Virus record (IMG/VR): IMGVR_UViG_2619619132_000003
Location: 1 to 6,373 of that record
DNA from: a virus
Lineage: Duplodnaviria > Heunggongvirae > Uroviricota > Caudoviricetes
Reading direction: 5' to 3' (one strand)
Length of the DNA stretch: 6,373 nucleotides
A model generated the notes under the pieces. That model did not search any database and was not told the origin of the DNA. It worked only from the letters and a program-made list of their open reading frames with translations. The stretch's first letter is position 1. Every line of letters begins with the position of its first letter. The translations under genes were made by a program, and so were the position numbers. Of the stretch, positions 1 through 6,373 are shown in pieces.

Positions 1-20
1 CCCGCCGTAGCGAGTTCAGA

Positions 21-48
21 TAAAAGAAATCCCCGCGAGTGCGAGGAT
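21..48 (-). terminator. Probable Rho-independent terminator ending the minus-strand operon
   Basis: On the minus-strand RNA, 29-48 folds as AUCCUCGC-ACUC-GCGGGGAU: an 8-bp GC-rich stem with one G-U wobble and a 4-nt loop, followed directly by a U-rich run UUCUUUUAUC (plus 19-28). It lies about 20 nt downstream of the stop of the last gene (67-69). Confidence 0.5.
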
Positions 49-66
49 AGTTACTTGTTCATATTA

Positions 67-348
67 TTAATCGTCAATGTATTTTGAGCATTGTGGGCAA
101 TCATCAATCCCACAATACGATTCATATGCATCCTTTATTGCGTCGCGGGCTTCAGTAAGAGTATTGAATAAGTTGCAGCTATTATCTTTTTGATATAGGT
201 AAGTTCCTAATTTATAAGCAGAAGAAGCATCACTTCCGCTGTCTAAAATTACATCGTTATGGATTCTGCACCTTGCAAGAATTCCTGATCCCATAAGGGT
301 CTGCATAGCCCATTGCTCTTGATCTTCACACAAATCATGAATGCTCAT
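67..348 (-). CDS. Hypothetical small protein (93 aa) with C-terminal C-x4-C-x2-C motif
   Basis: The track ORF 67..366 begins with GTG at 366. The in-frame ATG at 348-346 is preceded by GAGAGGTG (Shine-Dalgarno-like) with about 5 nt spacing. The C-terminus contains CGIDDCPQC, with additional Cys at track-ORF residues 13, 32 and 63. No family recognised. Confidence 0.5.
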   Translation of the reverse strand: MSIHDLCEDQEQWAMQTLMGSGILARCRIHNDVILDSGSDASSAYKLGTYLYQKDNSCNLFNTLTEARDAIKDAYESYCGIDDCPQCSKYIDD

Positions 349-447
349 TTCAACACCTCTCTTCACGTTTCACACACGTTAAGATTAACAGTGTTTTTAC
401 ATGCTTTGGAAGATTTATTTTATAAAAACTCTTTTAATACAAATAGA

Positions 448-467
448 TATAATAGTTCACTATTATA
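448..467. promoter_or_regulatory. 20-bp AT-rich dyad TATAATAG-TTCA-CTATTATA in the intergenic region
   Basis: Perfect 8-bp inverted repeat arms (448-455 and 460-467) around a 4-bp spacer, overlapping the stop codon of the 463..1698 gene. On the minus strand this reads CTATAAT, a -10-like hexamer, about 100 bp upstream of the 67..348 gene. No convincing -35 was found. Confidence 0.25.
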
Positions 468-1698
468 GCTCCTTTAATCGAGGCGGTTCTGGTAGAGGCA
501 TCCAGTGGGTTACCTCTTTGAGATACAGGTCTTCGCCATCACCGTCATCCCAAGTTGGATTGCCATCATTAAACCAGTCGCCATATACGCCGACCTGAGT
601 GTTGGGGATGTTTGGTGGGTAGTTGTTTTTAAAGTCAGCTGCTAACACATAGCATTGTCGCTCTCCCATTTCTGGCATTCGCTCACTACAGCTTATCCAA
701 CCATCCGGAGTTACCGGAGAGTTGCCATTTACCAAGTCAGCTCGAACATATAGCGTGTCATCATGGTGCTGATTGTGGCTGCACCACGTTAATTCGCTTA
801 ACTCGCCATCTTCTGGCCATACTCCAGCTGTTTGCAGCCAGATATGGGCTGGCGCATCTTGGCAAGGTGTATTAACTGGCAACTTGTAAGTTTGGCTTAC
901 AGGTTGGCTACCCTGAAGCATGGCAGCGTGGCAGGCATCCTCTACGCCCTTAACTGCATCTGCGCAGTAGTTATAGCGATTGCATTCCACTAACTTCTGC
1001 TTGAGATTTTCAATTGCTTGCGCGACATCAGCCTGTATTGGCGGAACGGCTGTCTGCTGCTCTCGAACGTCATTAGTCGCTATCGGTTCTGCTGCCAACT
1101 GACTGGCATATTTGTTAATGGTAACGATAAGCTCTTGCTCAGCCTCATCCAGACAATCACCAATACCTCGCCTGTCACCGTCAAAATCATCGAAATCTGC
1201 ACGAATCCTGGCAACCTTCAGGATTGCGGACAACACCTCACTAGGAATTACCGGATAGTTGGTTGACGTTTCCGCGATTTCCCGAAAATTATTGGTTGAC
1301 GAATTCTTATTTTCCCGAAAGTTTCCGGACTGAAGCATGGCGGCGCGGCAGGCGTTCCAGCCAGCTGTTCGCCCAAGCGCGTAAACTTCAGATGGCTCAA
1401 GATAATCAATGTCATGCCCGTCCTCATCGTTGTTCTCAGGTAATGCAGCAGGTACTACCGGTACTGGCGGAGCGGCGTAGACTTCAATAATCCCATTATC
1501 AATAGGCCATTCTCCATCCTTGAGATAGTCACTTGTGCCGTCAACTTGCTGTTCAGCAATGTGGAATGCACCAACTGGCTCTGCCTCAAGCGAGGCCAGT
1601 GCAATCCGTGCCAGTTCCATTTGTTCGCCACGGGTAAGCCCGTTTTCAAGCGGATTTTTAATGAACAATTCAATACGTTCTTTGGTAATAGTGGTCAT
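463..1698 (-). CDS. DUF551-type prophage protein (411 aa) with internal repeats
   Basis: ATG at 1698-1696 preceded by AAGGAG with 6 nt spacing. The C-terminus (DGWISCSERMPE ... THWMPLPEPP) matches the DUF551 pattern as I remember it. Contains a repeated AC(R/H)AAMLQ motif and a tandem 11-aa repeat NFRENKNSSTN / NFREIAETSTN. Confidence 0.75.
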   Translation of the reverse strand: MTTITKERIELFIKNPLENGLTRGEQMELARIALASLEAEPVGAFHIAEQQVDGTSDYLKDGEWPIDNGIIEVYAAPPVPVVPAALPENNDEDGHDIDYLEPSEVYALGRTAGWNACRAAMLQSGNFRENKNSSTNNFREIAETSTNYPVIPSEVLSAILKVARIRADFDDFDGDRRGIGDCLDEAEQELIVTINKYASQLAAEPIATNDVREQQTAVPPIQADVAQAIENLKQKLVECNRYNYCADAVKGVEDACHAAMLQGSQPVSQTYKLPVNTPCQDAPAHIWLQTAGVWPEDGELSELTWCSHNQHHDDTLYVRADLVNGNSPVTPDGWISCSERMPEMGERQCYVLAADFKNNYPPNIPNTQVGVYGDWFNDGNPTWDDGDGEDLYLKEVTHWMPLPEPPRLKEL

Positions 1699-1708
1699 GT
1701 GTTACTCC

Positions 1709-1972
1709 TTAACCCGCAGTGCTTTCAACTGATGAGGGGAACAAAATCTTTTCATCAAACCCTGCATTCATATCATGAACAGCAACACACCAATCCATTG
1801 ACGAACGATTATCAAGAGCCTCCATGATTTCATCCATGCGGCGTAGGTCATACAGGTAAATGCTTTTATCGCCAATGGTGTAAAAACCAATTTTTTTCGG
1901 TGACGGGCAGCGATCAAGAACGTTCTGTAATTCGCTCAACCATGCTTGTTCTTTTTTTGTCAAAGTTGCCAT
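1709..1972 (-). CDS. Hypothetical protein (87 aa)
   Basis: The track ORF 1709..2014 starts at an ATG that overlaps the upstream gene by 41 nt. The internal ATG at 1972-1970 is preceded by AAAGGAGAG with 6 nt spacing and sits 1 nt after the upstream stop (1976-1974), so I prefer it. No family recognised. Confidence 0.55.
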   Translation of the reverse strand: MATLTKKEQAWLSELQNVLDRCPSPKKIGFYTIGDKSIYLYDLRRMDEIMEALDNRSSMDWCVAVHDMNAGFDEKILFPSSVESTAG

Positions 1973-1973
1973 A

Positions 1974-2564
1974 TCACTCTCCTTTGATGCGAATGCCAGC
2001 GGCGCGGGAATCATTCCATCGCTTTACTTCTTCACGAATTACGTCAATGCATTCTTTCGAATCCATTAGGTAATCTTCATCAAAAAGACGTTCCTGTTCG
2101 TTTTCTATCGCAACAATGATTGCTTCAACTAACTTTTGTGCCTGAGAACCACTTTCTAACTCTGCAATGCGCTTCTCTGCGGCCTCTGCCCTGCATTGTT
2201 CCCGTTGGAACATTTTGTGGGTGCGGTCGAGCGCCTCAAGTCTGGCTGCTGATGTTTTCTGTTCTGCTTCAAGCTCAACGCGCAGCTTCCCTACCGTTAG
2301 CGCAATATCCTCGTTCTCCTGGTCACGGCGTTTGATGTATTGCTGGTTTCTTTCCCGTTCATCCAGCAGCGCCAAGACGGTAGCCGGATTGGCTGCGGCG
2401 ATGAATTCAGCATCACGAGATTCGTTTTCACTTAACACCATAGCTATTTGCTCATGGTTTATGCCGTCAGTGGAGTAAATCTCATCGTCGAATTCAACAG
2501 CCCACTTACCTTTCGTAGCCTTCTCCGCCGCCTCACGCAGTGCATGGTAATCAATCTTGCTCAC
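1974..2564 (-). CDS. Ead/Ea22-like family protein (196 aa)
   Basis: GTG start at 2564-2562 preceded by AAGGAGG with 6 nt spacing. The N-terminus MSKIDYHALREAAEKATKGKWAVE resembles the conserved N-terminal region of lambda Ea22-like prophage proteins as I remember it. The central region is coiled-coil-like (LEAEQKTSAARLEALDRTHKMFQREQCRAEAAEKRIAELES). Overlaps the upstream gene by 14 nt. Confidence 0.6.
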   Translation of the reverse strand: MSKIDYHALREAAEKATKGKWAVEFDDEIYSTDGINHEQIAMVLSENESRDAEFIAAANPATVLALLDERERNQQYIKRRDQENEDIALTVGKLRVELEAEQKTSAARLEALDRTHKMFQREQCRAEAAEKRIAELESGSQAQKLVEAIIVAIENEQERLFDEDYLMDSKECIDVIREEVKRWNDSRAAGIRIKGE

Positions 2565-2868
2565 TGGTTGCCTCCTTTGCTGGGCCTTCTAACTTCTGAG
2601 TGGTTGTATCAAACTCAAACAACTTAACCACGTCATCAAACAGGACATAATCGCCATCAGAATCTTCAGTCATGTCAGCGCCACAATCCTGACCGCACGA
2701 GTCGCAACCTCCCATATCAAGCTCGTATCGCTTCAGGTTTGCGATATTTGATAAATTCAGCGCCAGTACAGCCAGGTCATAAACCTCTTCGGCGGTATAC
2801 CCTGCACCATGCCCATACATTTCAATGCGGGATATGATTTCTTCTACCCGTTGTTTTGTGATCGTCAT
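2551..2868 (-). CDS. Hypothetical acidic protein (105 aa) with Cys cluster CDSCGQDC
   Basis: ATG at 2868-2866 preceded by GGGAGGTGA, in an ATGA overlap with the upstream stop (2867-2865). By my count about 23 Asp/Glu against 8 Lys/Arg, with the acidic residues concentrated in the C-terminal half. No family recognised. Confidence 0.6.
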   Translation of the reverse strand: MTITKQRVEEIISRIEMYGHGAGYTAEEVYDLAVLALNLSNIANLKRYELDMGGCDSCGQDCGADMTEDSDGDYVLFDDVVKLFEFDTTTQKLEGPAKEATSEQD

Positions 2869-3326
2869 TTTTGCTCACCTCCCTGTTCTTCCAGAAAAAT
2901 ACGCATAGCCTCAAGCATCTCTTCGGTGTCATACGGAGACAGCTTGTCACGCAGGATGTGTTCAATGCTGTTAATGAACTTTCGGATTGCTTTGCGTTCA
3001 ATTTCGGTCAGGAAAGCATCGGTGGCTGGGGTGTCTGATTGCAGAGACTTTGCGCGATAGTCATTCCACCCTCTTGCATACATGGGATTAACTTGCACTC
3101 CATCTTTTACGCAATATGCCTGACCTCCACGGTTGATAACCTTGATTTCGTCCATTGCGCCAGACTTCAGCCCCGCATTCTCCGCCGCCAGCTCCGCGCA
3201 CTTGGCCTCCGCTTCAGCAAATTTACGCACCAGATATTCAGCGTTTGTTTCGTTAACCTTTAGATCTCGTGGGATGCATTTACCTTTCAGAAAACCATCC
3301 ATCTCAATTAGTGACATTTGTTTCAT
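2865..3326 (-). CDS. Hypothetical protein (153 aa)
   Basis: The track ORF 2865..3344 starts with GTG. The in-frame ATG at 3326-3324 forms an ATGA overlap with the stop of the upstream small ORF (3325-3323) and is preceded by GGAG about 9 nt upstream. No family recognised. Confidence 0.5.
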
Positions 3327-3487
3327 TTCTTGCCACTCCGCCACATCGCATTCAGATATTTGTTTTGATTCACTGAAGGAAAAGAATTTCTCTTAAGCAA
3401 TTCCTCTCTCGATGGCATTGGCTTTACGCGTTGGCGAATAATCATTTCTGCCGGAAGAATGCCGGGATTGTATGCAAGTCCTCTCAT
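3323..3487 (-). CDS. Hypothetical small basic protein (54 aa)
   Basis: The track ORF 3323..3640 starts with TTG and overlaps the upstream gene extensively. The internal ATG at 3487-3485 is preceded by GAGGAA with about 7 nt spacing, and the upstream stop (3500-3498) lies inside that Shine-Dalgarno. The ATG at 3505 is an alternative but has no Shine-Dalgarno. Confidence 0.4.
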
Positions 3488-3497
3488 GGTAAATTCC

Positions 3498-3794
3498 TCA
3501 GTCATTACTGATAGCGCCATAGCGTGAGCGGTAATTACGCAGGCGCGGGTCGATATATTCAGGGAAGTGGGTATATGTGGCTTTGCGGAATGGTCGGATT
3601 GATGTCTGGTAAATTCGCTCGCGTTCTTCTTTCTCTGCAAGCCATATACAGTGGCGAAATTCCTTTTCCTCTTTCGTTTCCTGCGGTAGCGACATTATCC
3701 GATCGTAGTTTTTTCTGAATTTATCCAGCACCTCCGATACGGAATTGCCGGAACAGCGGCGCGCGTCATCCGCACCATACAGAGGCGCTGGCAT
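3498..3794 (-). CDS. Hypothetical protein (98 aa), basic and aromatic-rich, immediately downstream of erf-ssb
   Basis: ATG at 3794-3792 preceded by AAGGA with about 8 nt spacing. Size and position are reminiscent of P22 abc2 (anti-RecBCD), but I do not recognise the sequence, so this is positional inference only. Confidence 0.55.
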
Positions 3795-3817
3795 AATGGA
3801 ATCCTTATTTTGCTAAT

Positions 3818-4201
3818 CTAGAAGGGAATTGAATCGTCGTATTCAGGATGATTTTGATGATTGCTACTTTGTTGCTGTTGGCTGTTTCCTGAAGTTGCAA
3901 ATCCAATCTTTGCATTCAGTAATTCAAGAGTGATTGATTGACCATTTTGCCCCTGATAAACATCAACCATGATGTTTTCTCCGGTAATTTCTACAATGCC
4001 ACCTTCAACAAGAACACTACGGTAGTAATCCGCTTGCGCTCCCGGCTTGGCAAATACAACGGCGCTGTAGTTTGTCCATTCTTTCTTTTTTGTCTGGCGA
4101 TCGTAATACTGAACGCCAGCACGGATGTTGAATCCGATATTTTCCCCGGCCTGAAACTCTCTTGCGGGCTTGTTTAGTCTTACAGTAATCGAATGTGCCA
4201 T
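3818..4201 (-). CDS. ssb: Single-stranded DNA-binding protein, short phage type (127 aa)
   Basis: ATG at 4201-4199 overlaps the Erf stop by 1 nt (TAATG), with AGGAG upstream. The core WTNYSAVVFAK...YYRSVLVEGGIVEITGENI parallels the E. coli SSB OB-fold segment WHRVVLFGKLAE...YLRKGSQVYIEGQL. A Gln-rich linker leads to the acidic tail YDDSIPF, compared with DDDIPF in E. coli SSB. Confidence 0.8.
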   Translation of the reverse strand: MAHSITVRLNKPAREFQAGENIGFNIRAGVQYYDRQTKKKEWTNYSAVVFAKPGAQADYYRSVLVEGGIVEITGENIMVDVYQGQNGQSITLELLNAKIGFATSGNSQQQQSSNHQNHPEYDDSIPF

Positions 4202-4806
4202 TAAGCAGCAGCTCCTTCTAATTCGTCTCGTCTGATGTTGTAAACGTCCTGCGCTTTGTGCTGCTCAGGTGTGCCTTCGAGCATCTTCCACGCTTTGGCG
4301 AACGCCTGTTTAAGCTCTTCTACGGTGTTTTTCTGCATTGCTGCGTCAGTGAATGCTTTTAGAACCTGTTCAGGTGTAGGTGATGGTTTTGATTGCTTTG
4401 CTGCTGCGTTCTGCTGATGTTTATGCTCGTCTGTATCTGCATCTTTCGCATCATCAATGCCGAACAAACCATTGAGGCAATACTTGCGTGCATAAGAGCT
4501 TGTAGCTCCCGTAACTTGTGCAGAATCCATTCCTTTCTTGCTTTCTTCCTCTCGTGCAAGAGCGGTTGCCGTATGGCTGTTTTCGCCATCGGTAATAGTT
4601 GCCGTGGCTTTCACGTAATACCGATCACCAATCAACACAACTTCATCGCTGATTGATAAAAACAGACCATTCAGTAACGGCTTAACGCCTTCAAGAATAT
4701 CTTCGCAGCTTCTGTATTTATATTTACCGAATGAGTTGTACTGATTCTTTGGCGCGTTCAGATTCTCCTGAATAGCTGCCAGTCTTGCGTAAAATTCTTT
4801 GCTCAT
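4201..4806 (-). CDS. erf: Erf-family single-strand annealing (recombination) protein (201 aa)
   Basis: The track ORF begins with TTG at 4836; the first ATG is at 4806-4804 and gives MSKEFYARLAAIQENLNAPKNQYNSFGKYKYRSCEDILEGVKPLL. Size, the kil-proximal position, coupling to ssb and my recollection of the P22 Erf N-terminus support the call; it was not verified by search. Confidence 0.6.
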   Translation of the reverse strand: MSKEFYARLAAIQENLNAPKNQYNSFGKYKYRSCEDILEGVKPLLNGLFLSISDEVVLIGDRYYVKATATITDGENSHTATALAREEESKKGMDSAQVTGATSSYARKYCLNGLFGIDDAKDADTDEHKHQQNAAAKQSKPSPTPEQVLKAFTDAAMQKNTVEELKQAFAKAWKMLEGTPEQHKAQDVYNIRRDELEGAAA

Positions 4807-4895
4807 ATGATTGTTCTCAGAATGGACACGGCCCAAGGAAATAACGCTGATTTAATACTTCGACTCGGGACAAATTAAGGCATACCCGCATTCCT

Positions 4896-5066
4896 TCACG
4901 ATCTCCATTCTGGCGATACATTAACGCCTGCTGCGTGTACATGCGTCTCTGTAACTTGCTCTCCTTCACTGTGGTTGCAAGTGACATGAATATCTCCTTC
5001 GTTACCGATTAATTCTTTCATCTGACGAATGAATTCTTCGTCTGACCAGTTATCTGTAAAACTCAT
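4896..5066 (-). CDS. Hypothetical small protein (56 aa) in the position of P22 arf
   Basis: The track ORF 4896..5081 starts with GTG. The in-frame ATG at 5066-5064 forms an ATGA overlap with the kil stop (5065-5063). Product MSFTDNWSDEEFIRQMKELIGNEGDIHVTCNHSEGEQVTETHVHAAGVNVSPEWRS. No sequence recognition. Confidence 0.4.
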   Translation of the reverse strand: MSFTDNWSDEEFIRQMKELIGNEGDIHVTCNHSEGEQVTETHVHAAGVNVSPEWRS

Positions 5067-5215
5067 TTCCTGCGATACCACGGAAGGTTGATAGCTGATT
5101 TCATCGCTTTATTTGCTTCAAGCCACATTTTTGAATCACCAATAAATCTGGCTATTACTGCTTTGTTCTGTGCAGCACGAAGCATCTGGTGATTGATGGC
5201 TATTTCATTGCGCAT
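5063..5215 (-). CDS. kil: Kil-like host cell-division inhibitor (50 aa)
   Basis: Hand-translated; not in the ORF track. ATG at 5215-5213 preceded by GAGG with about 7 nt spacing. Product MRNEIAINHQMLRAAQNKAVIARFIGDSKMWLEANKAMKSAIQLPWYRRK. The segment IARFIGDSKMW resembles lambda Kil (IATFIGDEKMF, as remembered). Overlaps the 3' end of cIII by 16 nt, as kil does in lambda. Confidence 0.6.
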   Translation of the reverse strand: MRNEIAINHQMLRAAQNKAVIARFIGDSKMWLEANKAMKSAINLPWYRRK

Positions 5216-5331
5216 AATAAGACCTCAACTCTTTTCCATCCGTCACGTAATTTACGGGTGATTCGTTCAAGTAAAGATTCATTTAATTGGAAGGCACCCA
5301 TGCGAGCGCCTCCCGCGATTGCGTAAATCAT
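5200..5331 (-). CDS. cIII: CIII-like protein (FtsH protease inhibitor, 43 aa)
   Basis: Hand-translated; not in the ORF track. ATG at 5331-5329 preceded by AAGGA with about 8 nt spacing. Product MIYAIAGGARMGAFQLNESLLERITRKLRDGWKRSEVLLCAMK. The core ESLLERITRKLRDGWKR and the N-terminal M-YAIAG match lambda CIII (MQYAIAG...ESLLERITRKLRDGWKR) as I remember it. Confidence 0.8.
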   Translation of the reverse strand: MIYAIAGGARMGAFQLNESLLERITRKLRDGWKRVEVLLCAMK

Positions 5332-5355
5332 GGGTGGTTCCTTATGTTGGTTTTA

Positions 5356-6231
5356 TTAGTAGGTTATTTTTGTTGCGAATACTTCGCCTTTTACGATGGC
5401 TGTTATGATATTTTTAGCAACATCTTCTGATGCACCAACCTTGATAAGGTCAGCAAGTATTTTGTTATTTACTTCTTTCCGGTGAGCTTTATCCTTTGCT
5501 CTACGCTCTTCTTCGTCCTTGATTCTTTTTTCTTCTGCTATTCTGGCTTGCTCTTTTGCTTCAGCTTCGCGCCGGATTCGTTCAGCCTCCTCCTGTGCTT
5601 TTCGGCGTTCTGCTTCAATTGCCGCCTGCTTTTCTCTTTCAGCTCGTTCTGCTGCCTCTTTTGCTTCGCGCTGTGCTCGTTGCTCGGCTTCAATGCGTTC
5701 ACGCTCTGCACGTTCCGCTGCGGCCTTAGCTTCTGCTTCTCGCCTTGCTGCTGCTTCAATTTCGGCTTTTGCCTTTGCTTCGGCTTCTGCTCTGGCTTTC
5801 TCTTCAGCTTCTCTTTTTAAGCGTTCTTCATGCTCTCGCTTTTCCTGCTCCGCTTTGAGTCTTGCCTCTTCTCTTTTGCGGTCAAATTCGCGATCCATCA
5901 AAATCGCTATTTCATGGTCAGACTCAATTTGCTTTGCGAGAGCTTCAGCTGCTGCCTTAGCTTCTTCTTCGGCTTTAATCCGTGCCTGTTCCTCCTCATA
6001 ATCAGTAAGAGGCTGGCGTGCCTTGGCTTTCAGTTCATCAAGGCGATCGCGCACTGTCTTGCGGTTGGCATCAATTAGCTTTGGAATTTCCTTCAGTTCA
6101 GCAACAAGGTCTTTGCCAAGACCATCGAGATATGTTTTCGTCTGCGCAACTTTATACGCCAGAGAAGCGATCTGAACCGCCCCGGGTTTCCTGGAGAGTG
6201 TTTTATCTGTGAACTCAGGCTGCCAGATCAT
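5356..6231 (-). CDS. E/A/K/R-rich coiled-coil protein, apparently interrupted at its 5' end by the IS; native portion 5356..6172
   Basis: The track ORF 5356..6357 starts with GTG inside the transposase coding region, in another frame. Sequence right of 6172 is IS-derived. The first in-frame ATGs (6249, 6231) lie inside the IS and have weak or no Shine-Dalgarno. The native part has no start codon of its own, so this is most likely the 3' fragment of a disrupted gene, possibly expressed as a fusion. About 170 aa are low-complexity, e.g. EAEAKAKAEIEAAARREAEAKAAAERAERERIEAEQRAQREAKEAAERAEREKQAAIEAERRKAQEEAERIRREAEAKEQARIAEEKRIKDEEERRAKDKA. Confidence 0.45.
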   Translation of the reverse strand: MIWQPEFTDKTLSRKPGAVQIASLAYKVAQTKTYLDGLGKDLVAELKEIPKLIDANRKTVRDRLDELKAKARQPLTDYEEEQARIKAEEEAKAAAEALAKQIESDHEIAILMDREFDRKREEARLKAEQEKREHEERLKREAEEKARAEAEAKAKAEIEAAARREAEAKAAAERAERERIEAEQRAQREAKEAAERAEREKQAAIEAERRKAQEEAERIRREAEAKEQARIAEEKRIKDEEERRAKDKAHRKEVNNKILADLIKVGASEDVAKNIITAIVKGEVFATKITY

Positions 6232-6373
6232 CGTTTCCGATGGAAGCATAATAAGCTTTTTCTGCTTCTGCCGGAGGAGTATGGCCCAGCCTTTCCAGCA
6301 ATCGTCGATTGTTATACCAGTCCACCCACGTGAGTGTGGCCAGTTCCACTTCTGCACGGTTTTTCCAGCTCTT
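6173..6373 (-). mobile_element. IS3-family insertion sequence (IS629/IS1203-like), terminal ~200 bp; continues beyond the window
   Basis: The plus strand from 6173 reads TGAACCGCCCCGGGTTTCCTGGAGAGTG, a TG-initiated terminal inverted repeat that I recognise as IS629-group. It sits 42 bp beyond the stop of a transposase-like reading frame on the minus strand. Confidence 0.7.
6215..6373 (-). CDS. IS3-family transposase OrfB, 3' end (partial; 5' end outside window)
   Basis: Hand-translated minus-strand frame open to the window edge: KSWKNRAEVELATLTWVDWYNNRRLLERLGHTPPAEAEKAYYASIGNDDLAA, stop at 6217-6215. WYNNRRL...PPAE...YY is the characteristic C-terminus of the IS3-family integrase-core (rve) domain. 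It is absent from the ORF track because no start lies in the window. Confidence 0.75.
   Translation of the reverse strand, partial: KSWKNRAEVELATLTWVDWYNNRRLLERLGHTPPAEAEKAYYASIGNDDLAA

Follow-up and report, generated by a model that had tools for sequence, protein, structure and literature searches.

We analysed a 6,373-nucleotide (nt) stretch of a Caudoviricetes virus (IMG/VR record IMGVR_UViG_2619619132_000003, positions 1 to 6,373; hereafter the window), whose genes are all on the minus strand and make up the early-left (PL) operon of a lambdoid prophage. The subject of this report is two small genes located between positions 2865 and 3487, whose products of 54 and 153 amino acids (aa) had been described in a first-pass annotation, made from the sequence alone, as an obligately coupled pair matching no recognisable family. 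On balance, we favour reading this region as two separate accessory genes in the PL operon of an HK620/HK446-like lambdoid prophage: a DUF2737 gene (3323-3487, minus strand; PF10930, phrog_1117) followed by an allele of the EaE/Oad2 family (2865-3326, minus strand; phrog_614), which is ATGA-overlapped at both ends and for which counter-defence is the likeliest mechanism. The comparisons presented here document that both genes are real, which starts are best supported, to which families they belong, which synteny they keep and that the downstream gene undergoes cassette shuffling. The 153-aa allele is a putative anti-defence protein, an assignment based on homology, position and the pattern of diversification. 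Neither gene is out of the ordinary: both have been catalogued before in the lambdoid early-left accessory region.

The functional anchor of this reading is the gp27 protein of phage HK446, named Oad2 (OLD anti-defence 2), which reportedly needs no other phage protein to block the ABC-ATPase/TOPRIM tRNase OLD of P2 (bioRxiv 10.64898/2026.07.10.737580, July 2026). According to the same preprint, gp27 supplied alone from a plasmid inhibits OLD in vivo, purified Oad2 is active in vitro and binds OLD directly, and Oad2 has a relative in P22 EaE and occurs in some phages as a fusion with HNH or Ead/Ea22 modules; Gp33 is reported there as a sufficient OLD trigger in HK75 and HK446.

Identity, start sites and coding character of the two genes

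The smaller product, of 54 aa, is a complete member of DUF2737 (PF10930, 1-52/53, 107.7 bits with a Pfam cut-off of 25; phrog_1117, 1-54/54), and the 153-aa protein belongs to the family of P22 EaE and HK446 Oad2; the initial impression that neither product matches a family is thus not upheld. The description of the smaller product as basic was accurate (isoelectric point (pI) 11.0, net charge about +7.5, 6 kDa). In the window, the DUF2737 gene begins 10 nt after abc2, the position that it also occupies in P22, HK620, HK75 and Sf101. The 54-aa protein is matched by 702 phage records, 223 of which cover at least 80% of its length; among those listed, the partial matches span only residues ~23-54. 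Two genomes with such partial matches were inspected, one Jerseyvirus and one Kagunavirus-like. In both, DUF2737 belongs to a group of small genes flanked by the lysis genes and the terminase genes, and neither abc2 nor an EaE-like gene is present there; the DUF2737 of this type has only the C-terminal core P-x-P-[ST]-REEL-x-KRNSFP...NKYLN-x-MW in common with the window protein. A Jersey-type DUF2737 with its usual phage neighbours was also encountered in a contig assigned to Taishania pollutisoli (Bacteroidota; L096, 2501-2590), the likely cause being a contaminating enterobacterial phage, not a genuine host range. DUF2737 is an abundant, strongly conserved phage protein common to temperate and virulent enterobacterial phages. 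A literature search for it returned one incidental mention and no functional work. We infer that DUF2737 is a stand-alone early host-directed factor that travels with the recombination module and is not a subunit of the downstream protein.

The 153-aa protein matches phrog_614 (E 4e-53) and, partially, several other phrogs of the PHROGs database. In BLASTP, its residues 1-152 align with residues 1-175 of HK446 gp27 (42% identity, E 1e-38); the identity to P22 EaE is 33% over 82 residues (E 2e-7). NCBI has a protein of 100% identity (P0121), the family is thousands strong, and some of its records are named 'Phage eae protein'. No Pfam and no NCBIfam family was matched by the 153-aa protein, and PADLOC returned no match for the 54-aa, 153-aa, 105-aa, gp33-like and gp31-like proteins of the window; the reading of these genes as components of a defence system was rejected for lack of a PADLOC model match.

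Identical and near-identical NCBI proteins bear the name 'hNH endonuclease', assigned by the Prokaryotic Genome Annotation Pipeline (PGAP), which raises the question of whether the 153-aa protein is an HNH nuclease. We give this reading hardly any credence, since neither HNH nor any other family was found in Pfam or NCBIfam, the sequence contains no His/Asn/His or Cys-pair motif, and a profile search of PDB sequences returned coiled-coil noise only. The structure predicted by AlphaFold2 (AF2) was unusable when the single 153-aa sequence was supplied (predicted local distance difference test (pLDDT) score of 42); with 150 diverse homologues, an all-helical model was obtained (pLDDT 68; helices at residues 6-13, 26-68, 81-94, 100-128 and 131-149), for which Foldseek searches of PDB and BFVD gave nothing below E 0.5. 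The name was rejected on these grounds (no HNH/His-Me finger domain, no fold match, an all-helical model) and appears to be wrong on thousands of E. coli proteins, the 153-aa gene fitting the EaE/Oad2 family. Most likely, the name derives from EaE-HNH chimeras such as epsilon34 gene 31, which occupies the same slot and in which the EaE N-terminus is fused to an HNH homing endonuclease (PMC2629481).

A further question is where translation of the two genes begins. The open reading frame (ORF) list supplied with the window gave the longest forms, starting at TTG 3640 (105 aa, reaching 143 nt into abc2) and at GTG 3344 (159 aa). The first-pass annotation had suspected these non-ATG starts with long overlaps to be wrong, and we reach the same view: both are mechanical maximal ORFs, and ATG 3487 and ATG 3326 are, judging from sequence comparison, the best-supported starts. 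On the 54-aa form, the PF10930 alignment spans residues 1-52, which correspond to residues 52-103 of the 105-aa form. In E. coli prophages with 97-98% identity, PGAP annotates genes of 165 nt and 462 nt with 4-nt overlaps, and the same starts are annotated in HK620, HK446, HK75 and Huey. The ATG-Arg-Gly beginning of the DUF2737 gene and the upstream TGAGGA context are kept across 164 loci. Among 85 related loci, selected solely by a DUF2737 identity of at least 94% (a scan of genome contigs contributed 7 loci only), nearly all have the TGAGGAATTTACC-ATG context. In the P22-type clade, this context takes the form TGAGGA(A/G)TTTACG. Among loci, between 1 and 69 codons are open in frame upstream of ATG 3487, so that TTG is no conserved start. 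As for GTG 3344, it arises from the Met-Trp codons of DUF2737; P22-type phages lack it, and their eaE likewise starts at ATG.

Both ORFs prove to be under purifying selection as coding sequences. Between the E. coli-type and P22-type clades, the ratio of nonsynonymous to synonymous substitution rates (dN/dS) for DUF2737 is ~0.10 (dN ~0.21, dS ~2.1), a value that is only approximate because dS is saturated. Within the E. coli type, polymorphic sites of DUF2737 are distributed over the three codon positions as 8/13/32, and the corresponding polymorphism ratio (pN/pS) of 0.14 is biased because the loci were chosen by protein identity; for the 153-aa type, pN/pS is 0.19. It is against these data that the opposite possibility should be set, namely that one or both ORFs are untranslated and that the conservation belongs to a DNA or RNA element such as the tL3 terminator of HK620. 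In its favour, the HK620 GenBank record annotates 'tL3' inside hkaI (L005 3594-3606, equivalent to window ~3382-3394), and the DNA of the block 3201-3800 is 94-99% identical among loci. We consider this explanation very improbable: the codon-position bias and the ratios of ~0.1-0.2 are those of coding sequences, and the protein profiles match over their full length. At the window equivalent of tL3 (~3382-3394), there is no terminator-like hairpin with a T-run, and an RNA or terminator element in the DUF2737 gene was rejected after no terminator-like site and no Rfam match were found in 2500-3900.

Overlapping junctions and cassette structure of the EaE slot

The junctions of the two genes are very tight, and the first-pass annotation described them correctly. 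The stop codon of abc2 (TGA 3500-3498, minus strand) is overlapped by the Shine-Dalgarno sequence of the 54-aa gene (GAGGA, 3495-3499, minus strand, read at 3499-3495), which is followed 7 nt on by ATG 3487. The DUF2737 ORF comprises 165 nt (54 codons and a stop), and its TGA (3325-3323) overlaps the ATG of the next gene (3326-3324) in the ATGA tetranucleotide 3326-3323; the Shine-Dalgarno sequence of the 153-aa gene (GGAG, 3336-3339, minus strand) is situated inside the DUF2737 coding sequence, 9 nt before ATG 3326. The 153-aa ORF comprises 462 nt (153 codons and a stop), and its TGA (2867-2865) overlaps in the same manner the ATG of a 105-aa gene (2868-2866; ATGA 2868-2865), whose Shine-Dalgarno sequence (GGAGG, 2878-2882, minus strand) coincides with the codons for Gly-Gly in the conserved C-terminal tail. 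This tail, ...QLRKGGNQ, is kept across alleles of the 153-aa slot. The DUF2737/153-aa pair thus has both a stop/start overlap and a downstream Shine-Dalgarno sequence within the upstream coding sequence, as expected of coupled genes, and both kinds of feature are conserved. In HK620, HK446 and P22, DUF2737 is followed by an EaE-like gene, and the ATGA overlap together with a complete downstream ORF is retained in 80 of the 85 related loci. The arrangement is non-accidental, yet it is not peculiar to this pair, as tight packing is found operon-wide: the gaps at the operon junctions are 24, -16, -4, -92 (involving a doubtful ORF), 10, -1, 23, 10, -4, -4, -14, 1, 10 and 114 nt, including three ATGA overlaps.

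The first-pass annotation took the coupling to suggest stoichiometric co-expression. Does it mean that the products of the two genes, DUF2737 and the 153-aa protein, are partners in an obligate complex whose ratio is fixed by the ATGA overlap? Adjacency and the stop/start overlap are kept in the 80 E. coli-type loci mentioned above, and the P22 clade retains an overlap in another geometry (13 nt). The charges of the two proteins are complementary (pI 11.0 and 5.4), DUF2737 and the downstream head lie in the same conserved DNA block, and the numbers of phage records with full-length DUF2737 (~223) and with EaE-like matches (233) stand at ~1:1. Against this, the same tight coupling extends over the whole operon, the inspected Jerseyvirus and Kagunavirus-like genomes, which represent virulent phages, have DUF2737 but no EaE-like gene, and HK446 gp27/Oad2 is reportedly sufficient alone in vivo and active in vitro as a purified protein. 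Moreover, DUF2737 is near-invariant while its downstream partner is highly variable in V1 and V2 (the two variable cassettes described below), and any contact, which keeps some probability, would be confined to the constant head. For these reasons, the proposal of an obligate stoichiometric pair is weak, and an obligate complex appears unlikely to us.

The 153-aa protein has the build of the EaE/Oad2 family, whose members are helical coiled-coil proteins. It begins with a constant N-terminal head (codons 1-36; 3219-3326, minus strand), which is present in 80 of the 85 loci regardless of the remaining protein and has a pN/pS of 0.15. After it comes a coiled-coil linker of the form EAKCA..AEN (codons 40-50; 3177-3209, minus strand), conserved in our alignments A1 and A2 and used as an anchor for allele parsing. 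The first variable cassette, V1 (codons 51-98; 3033-3176, minus strand), differs from that of Oad2. The hinge TPATDAFL (codons 99-106; 3009-3032, minus strand), which is invariant in alignment A1 and present in the consensus of A2, separates it from the second variable cassette, V2, which together with the GG-containing C-terminal tail bearing the ribosome-binding site of the next gene occupies codons 107-153 (2868-3008, minus strand).

The diversity of this slot is considerable. Of the 85 loci, 84 share, at 94-99% identity, a DNA block of ~3201-3800 that contains abc2, DUF2737 and the initial ~40 codons of the gene behind them; the breakpoint lies near codon 40, and the remainder of the 153-aa gene is common to only 12-31 loci. 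The ORFs downstream of DUF2737 in the 80 loci have the same 36-aa head and lengths ranging from 92 to 301 aa, and the 85 loci encode 72 different proteins at this position, which fall into 38 tail clusters. When alleles were split at the conserved linkers, 43 were parsable, and these comprised 28 combinations, drawn from 12 V1 and 16 V2 types. Most V1 types were paired with several V2 types, and conversely; the V1 type of the window occurs with four different V2 types. Among 1.84 billion representative proteins, 554 clusters (at 50% identity) were found, with query segments 1-50, 34-120 and 92-153 matched separately. Beyond the block, the downstream gene varies as two cassettes are reassorted between linkers that stay conserved, a diversification that is consistent with an arms race.

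An identical 153-aa protein is found behind three different recombination modules, namely behind Erf/gp31/Abc2, behind Rad52/SSB/exonuclease/Abc2 and behind RecT/Gp157 without Abc2; the trio of DUF2737, 153-aa and 105-aa genes is intact in every such context, the 105-aa gene following in 6 of 6 independent contexts.

Other proteins in this slot deserve mention in their own right. In several loci (L017, L012, L046, L050 and others), the slot contains chimeras of the EaE head and the lambda Ea22 central segment (KLNEQREYYEGVISDGSKRIAELE), some of which add a DUF551-like C-terminus (PDGWISCSERMP...HWMPLPEPP). In the IMG/VR locus L021, the first 15 codons of the EaE head are fused in frame to the C-terminal portion of an integrase-like sequence (…FRFHDLRHTWASW…), which points to a deletion that joined the head to int in this prophage. 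In locus L071, a protein beginning with MTTITKER... directly follows DUF2737.

Proposed counter-defence and alternative roles

If the 153-aa protein acts as Oad2 does, the expected course would be as follows. Gp33 and Abc2, with which the phage itself manipulates RecBCD, would activate ABC-ATPase/TOPRIM sentinels of the OLD type; direct binding by the EaE/Oad2 protein would hold such a sentinel in an inactive state; and the variable cassettes V1 and V2 would set the target specificity. The window repeats the arrangement of HK446, in which an OLD trigger homologue (Gp33) and a divergent Oad2-like gene belong to one operon.

Several points weigh against this counter-defence reading. Its functional anchor is a single unreviewed preprint (bioRxiv 10.64898/2026.07.10.737580), and in that work the 54%-identical Oad2 homologue of HK75 does not inhibit P2 OLD, the activity being allele-specific. 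In our comparison, HK446 gp27 and HK75_28 are likewise 54% identical, the figure given in the preprint, which confirms gp27 as Oad2. The window protein, at 42% identity and with a different V1, may therefore not act on OLD at all; no specificity cassette shared with Oad2 was found, since V1 falls into another cluster than that of Oad2, and so does V2 at the 60% threshold. The AF2 model is of medium confidence (pLDDT 68) and the fold searches were empty, which lends no structural support to any mechanism. In addition, some alleles of the slot carry lambda-Ea22-like or DUF551 segments, which leaves some probability for an Ea22-like role in the lysis-lysogeny decision.

This last alternative holds that the 153-aa protein modulates the lysis-lysogeny decision in the manner of the lambda exo-xis genes (Ea22, Orf60a/61/63) and has no anti-defence function. 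The 153-aa gene does lie in the equivalent xis-to-recombination interval, its coiled-coil architecture resembles that of Ea22 (PMC10834534), certain same-slot alleles hold the central segment of lambda Ea22 or a DUF551 domain, and there is a weak partial match to phrog_368, which is also matched by the Ead/Ea22 protein of the window. Direct comparison with that family gave a different picture. Membership of the 153-aa protein in Ead/Ea22 was rejected, as there was no PF13935 match at E <= 0.1; BLASTP against the Ead/Ea22 protein of the window yielded nothing (E 12); and hhalign assigned a probability of 2.5% to the relationship between alignment A2 and the Ead/Ea22 alignment A3. Oad2, and not Ea22, is the nearest characterised relative, and on all this evidence we regard a lysis-lysogeny role as improbable and retain counter-defence as the likeliest function.

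A bolder extension of the counter-defence reading, which we put forward tentatively, is that the abc2-DUF2737-head block may serve as a fixed, translationally coupled 'socket' downstream of which V1 and V2, reassorting independently, are exchanged by recombination at the conserved linkers. The result could be a combinatorial library of inhibitors, each V1/V2 combination neutralising another variant of OLD-type or other sentinels that respond when RecBCD is disabled by the recombination module of the phage itself, and DUF2737 might then be a cofactor contacting the head. The EaE slot is in any case a hotspot, and its alleles can be used for mapping the determinants of anti-OLD or other anti-defence specificity.

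Operon setting and comparison with known systems

The operon surrounding the two genes is that of a lambdoid prophage throughout (all coordinates on the minus strand). At its upstream end, the C-terminal end of an IS3-family transposase (6215-6373, with weak rve_2/rve_3 matches) abuts a gene (5356 to ~6240) encoding a coiled-coil protein rich in Glu, Ala, Lys and Arg, which is 322 aa long in related prophages; as matches begin only at ~residue 35, this gene appears to be truncated N-terminally by the insertion of the IS3-family element. It is followed by cIII (5200-5331), kil (5063-5215) and a 56-aa gene homologous to Gp33 of HK446 and HK75 (4896-5066). The recombination module comprises erf (4201-4806; PF04404) and a gp31-like SSB-type gene of 127 aa (3818-4201). 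Directly upstream of the 54-aa gene lies abc2 (3498-3794), which encodes anti-RecBCD protein 2 of the P22 type (PF11043, 1-97/97, E 4e-61; phrog_656).

Between the Gp33 homologue and erf, a second ATG-initiated ORF of 56 aa is present in another frame (4817-4987, minus strand). It shares 92 nt with the 3' end of the gp33-like gene, ends 10 nt ahead of erf, has no Pfam match and is doubtful as a gene. Sf101 has two overlapping 'recombinase' ORFs annotated at the equivalent position, and HK446 has none. This ORF was considered as the Gp33 homologue and rejected, the true homologue being 4896-5066.

Downstream of the 153-aa gene, the ATGA-coupled gene for the 105-aa acidic protein (2551-2868; phrog_3126, 1-105/105) is followed by the Ead/Ea22 gene (1974-2564), an 87-aa gene (1709-1972), a gene for a 411-aa DUF551 protein (463-1698) and a homologue of lambda Ea8.5 (67-348; PF20735, E 1.5e-15) with a C-terminal CPxC...IDD motif. 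The 105-aa and 411-aa proteins have similar heads (MTTITKERIELF in the latter) and both match phrog_3323, which suggests a second mosaic of constant head and variable body like that of the EaE slot.

Among the known systems compared is HK446. From gp33 to gp27, its gene order differs from that of the window by gp29 only, which is missing from the window, and the identities of the window proteins to their HK446 counterparts are 100% for kil, 94.6% for gp33, 100% for erf (gp32), 98% for gp31, 98% for abc2 (gp30), 96% for DUF2737 (gp28) and 42% for gp27. HK446 gp27 directly follows DUF2737 with a 4-nt overlap, downstream of gp33-erf-gp31-abc2, and the window gene occupies the same slot. The two proteins have in common the head, the EAKC..AEN linker, the TPATDAFL hinge and the GG tail; the window protein is without the 21-aa GELESKLETALRECRSAGITIDNL insert of Oad2, and its V1 is unrelated. 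Counted on the alignment, the C-terminal module (residues 99-153) is ~43% identical to that of Oad2 with TPATDAFL included and ~33% identical without it, which makes this module a distant relative.

The DUF2737 proteins of other phages are closely comparable: HK620 hkaI, described in its annotation as similar to HK97 gp38, is 100% identical to the window protein, P22 ORF56 is ~75% identical and has the same place after abc2, and HK97 gp38 and the homologues of Sf6 and Sf101 are further members, so that nothing sets the window protein apart. The proteins encoded in the next position, P22 EaE, HK620 hkaH and HK97 gp37, are positional orthologues after DUF2737 that share the coiled-coil linker and TPATDAFL. 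The head of hkaH is nearly identical to that of the window protein, whereas P22 EaE has a different N-terminus and its gene overlaps ORF56 by 13 nt and not by 4. In EaE and in hkaH/HK97 gp37, V1 and V2 differ from those of the window, with 33-41% identity in partial alignments.

The exo-xis region of lambda (orf60a, orf63, orf61, ea22 and ea8.5) corresponds to the studied region in a more general way. Neither of the two genes is similar to lambda Orf60a, Orf61, Orf63, Ea22 or Ea8.5; the two regions occupy the same interval from the recombination genes to xis/int, are transcribed early from PL and consist of overlapped small ORFs.

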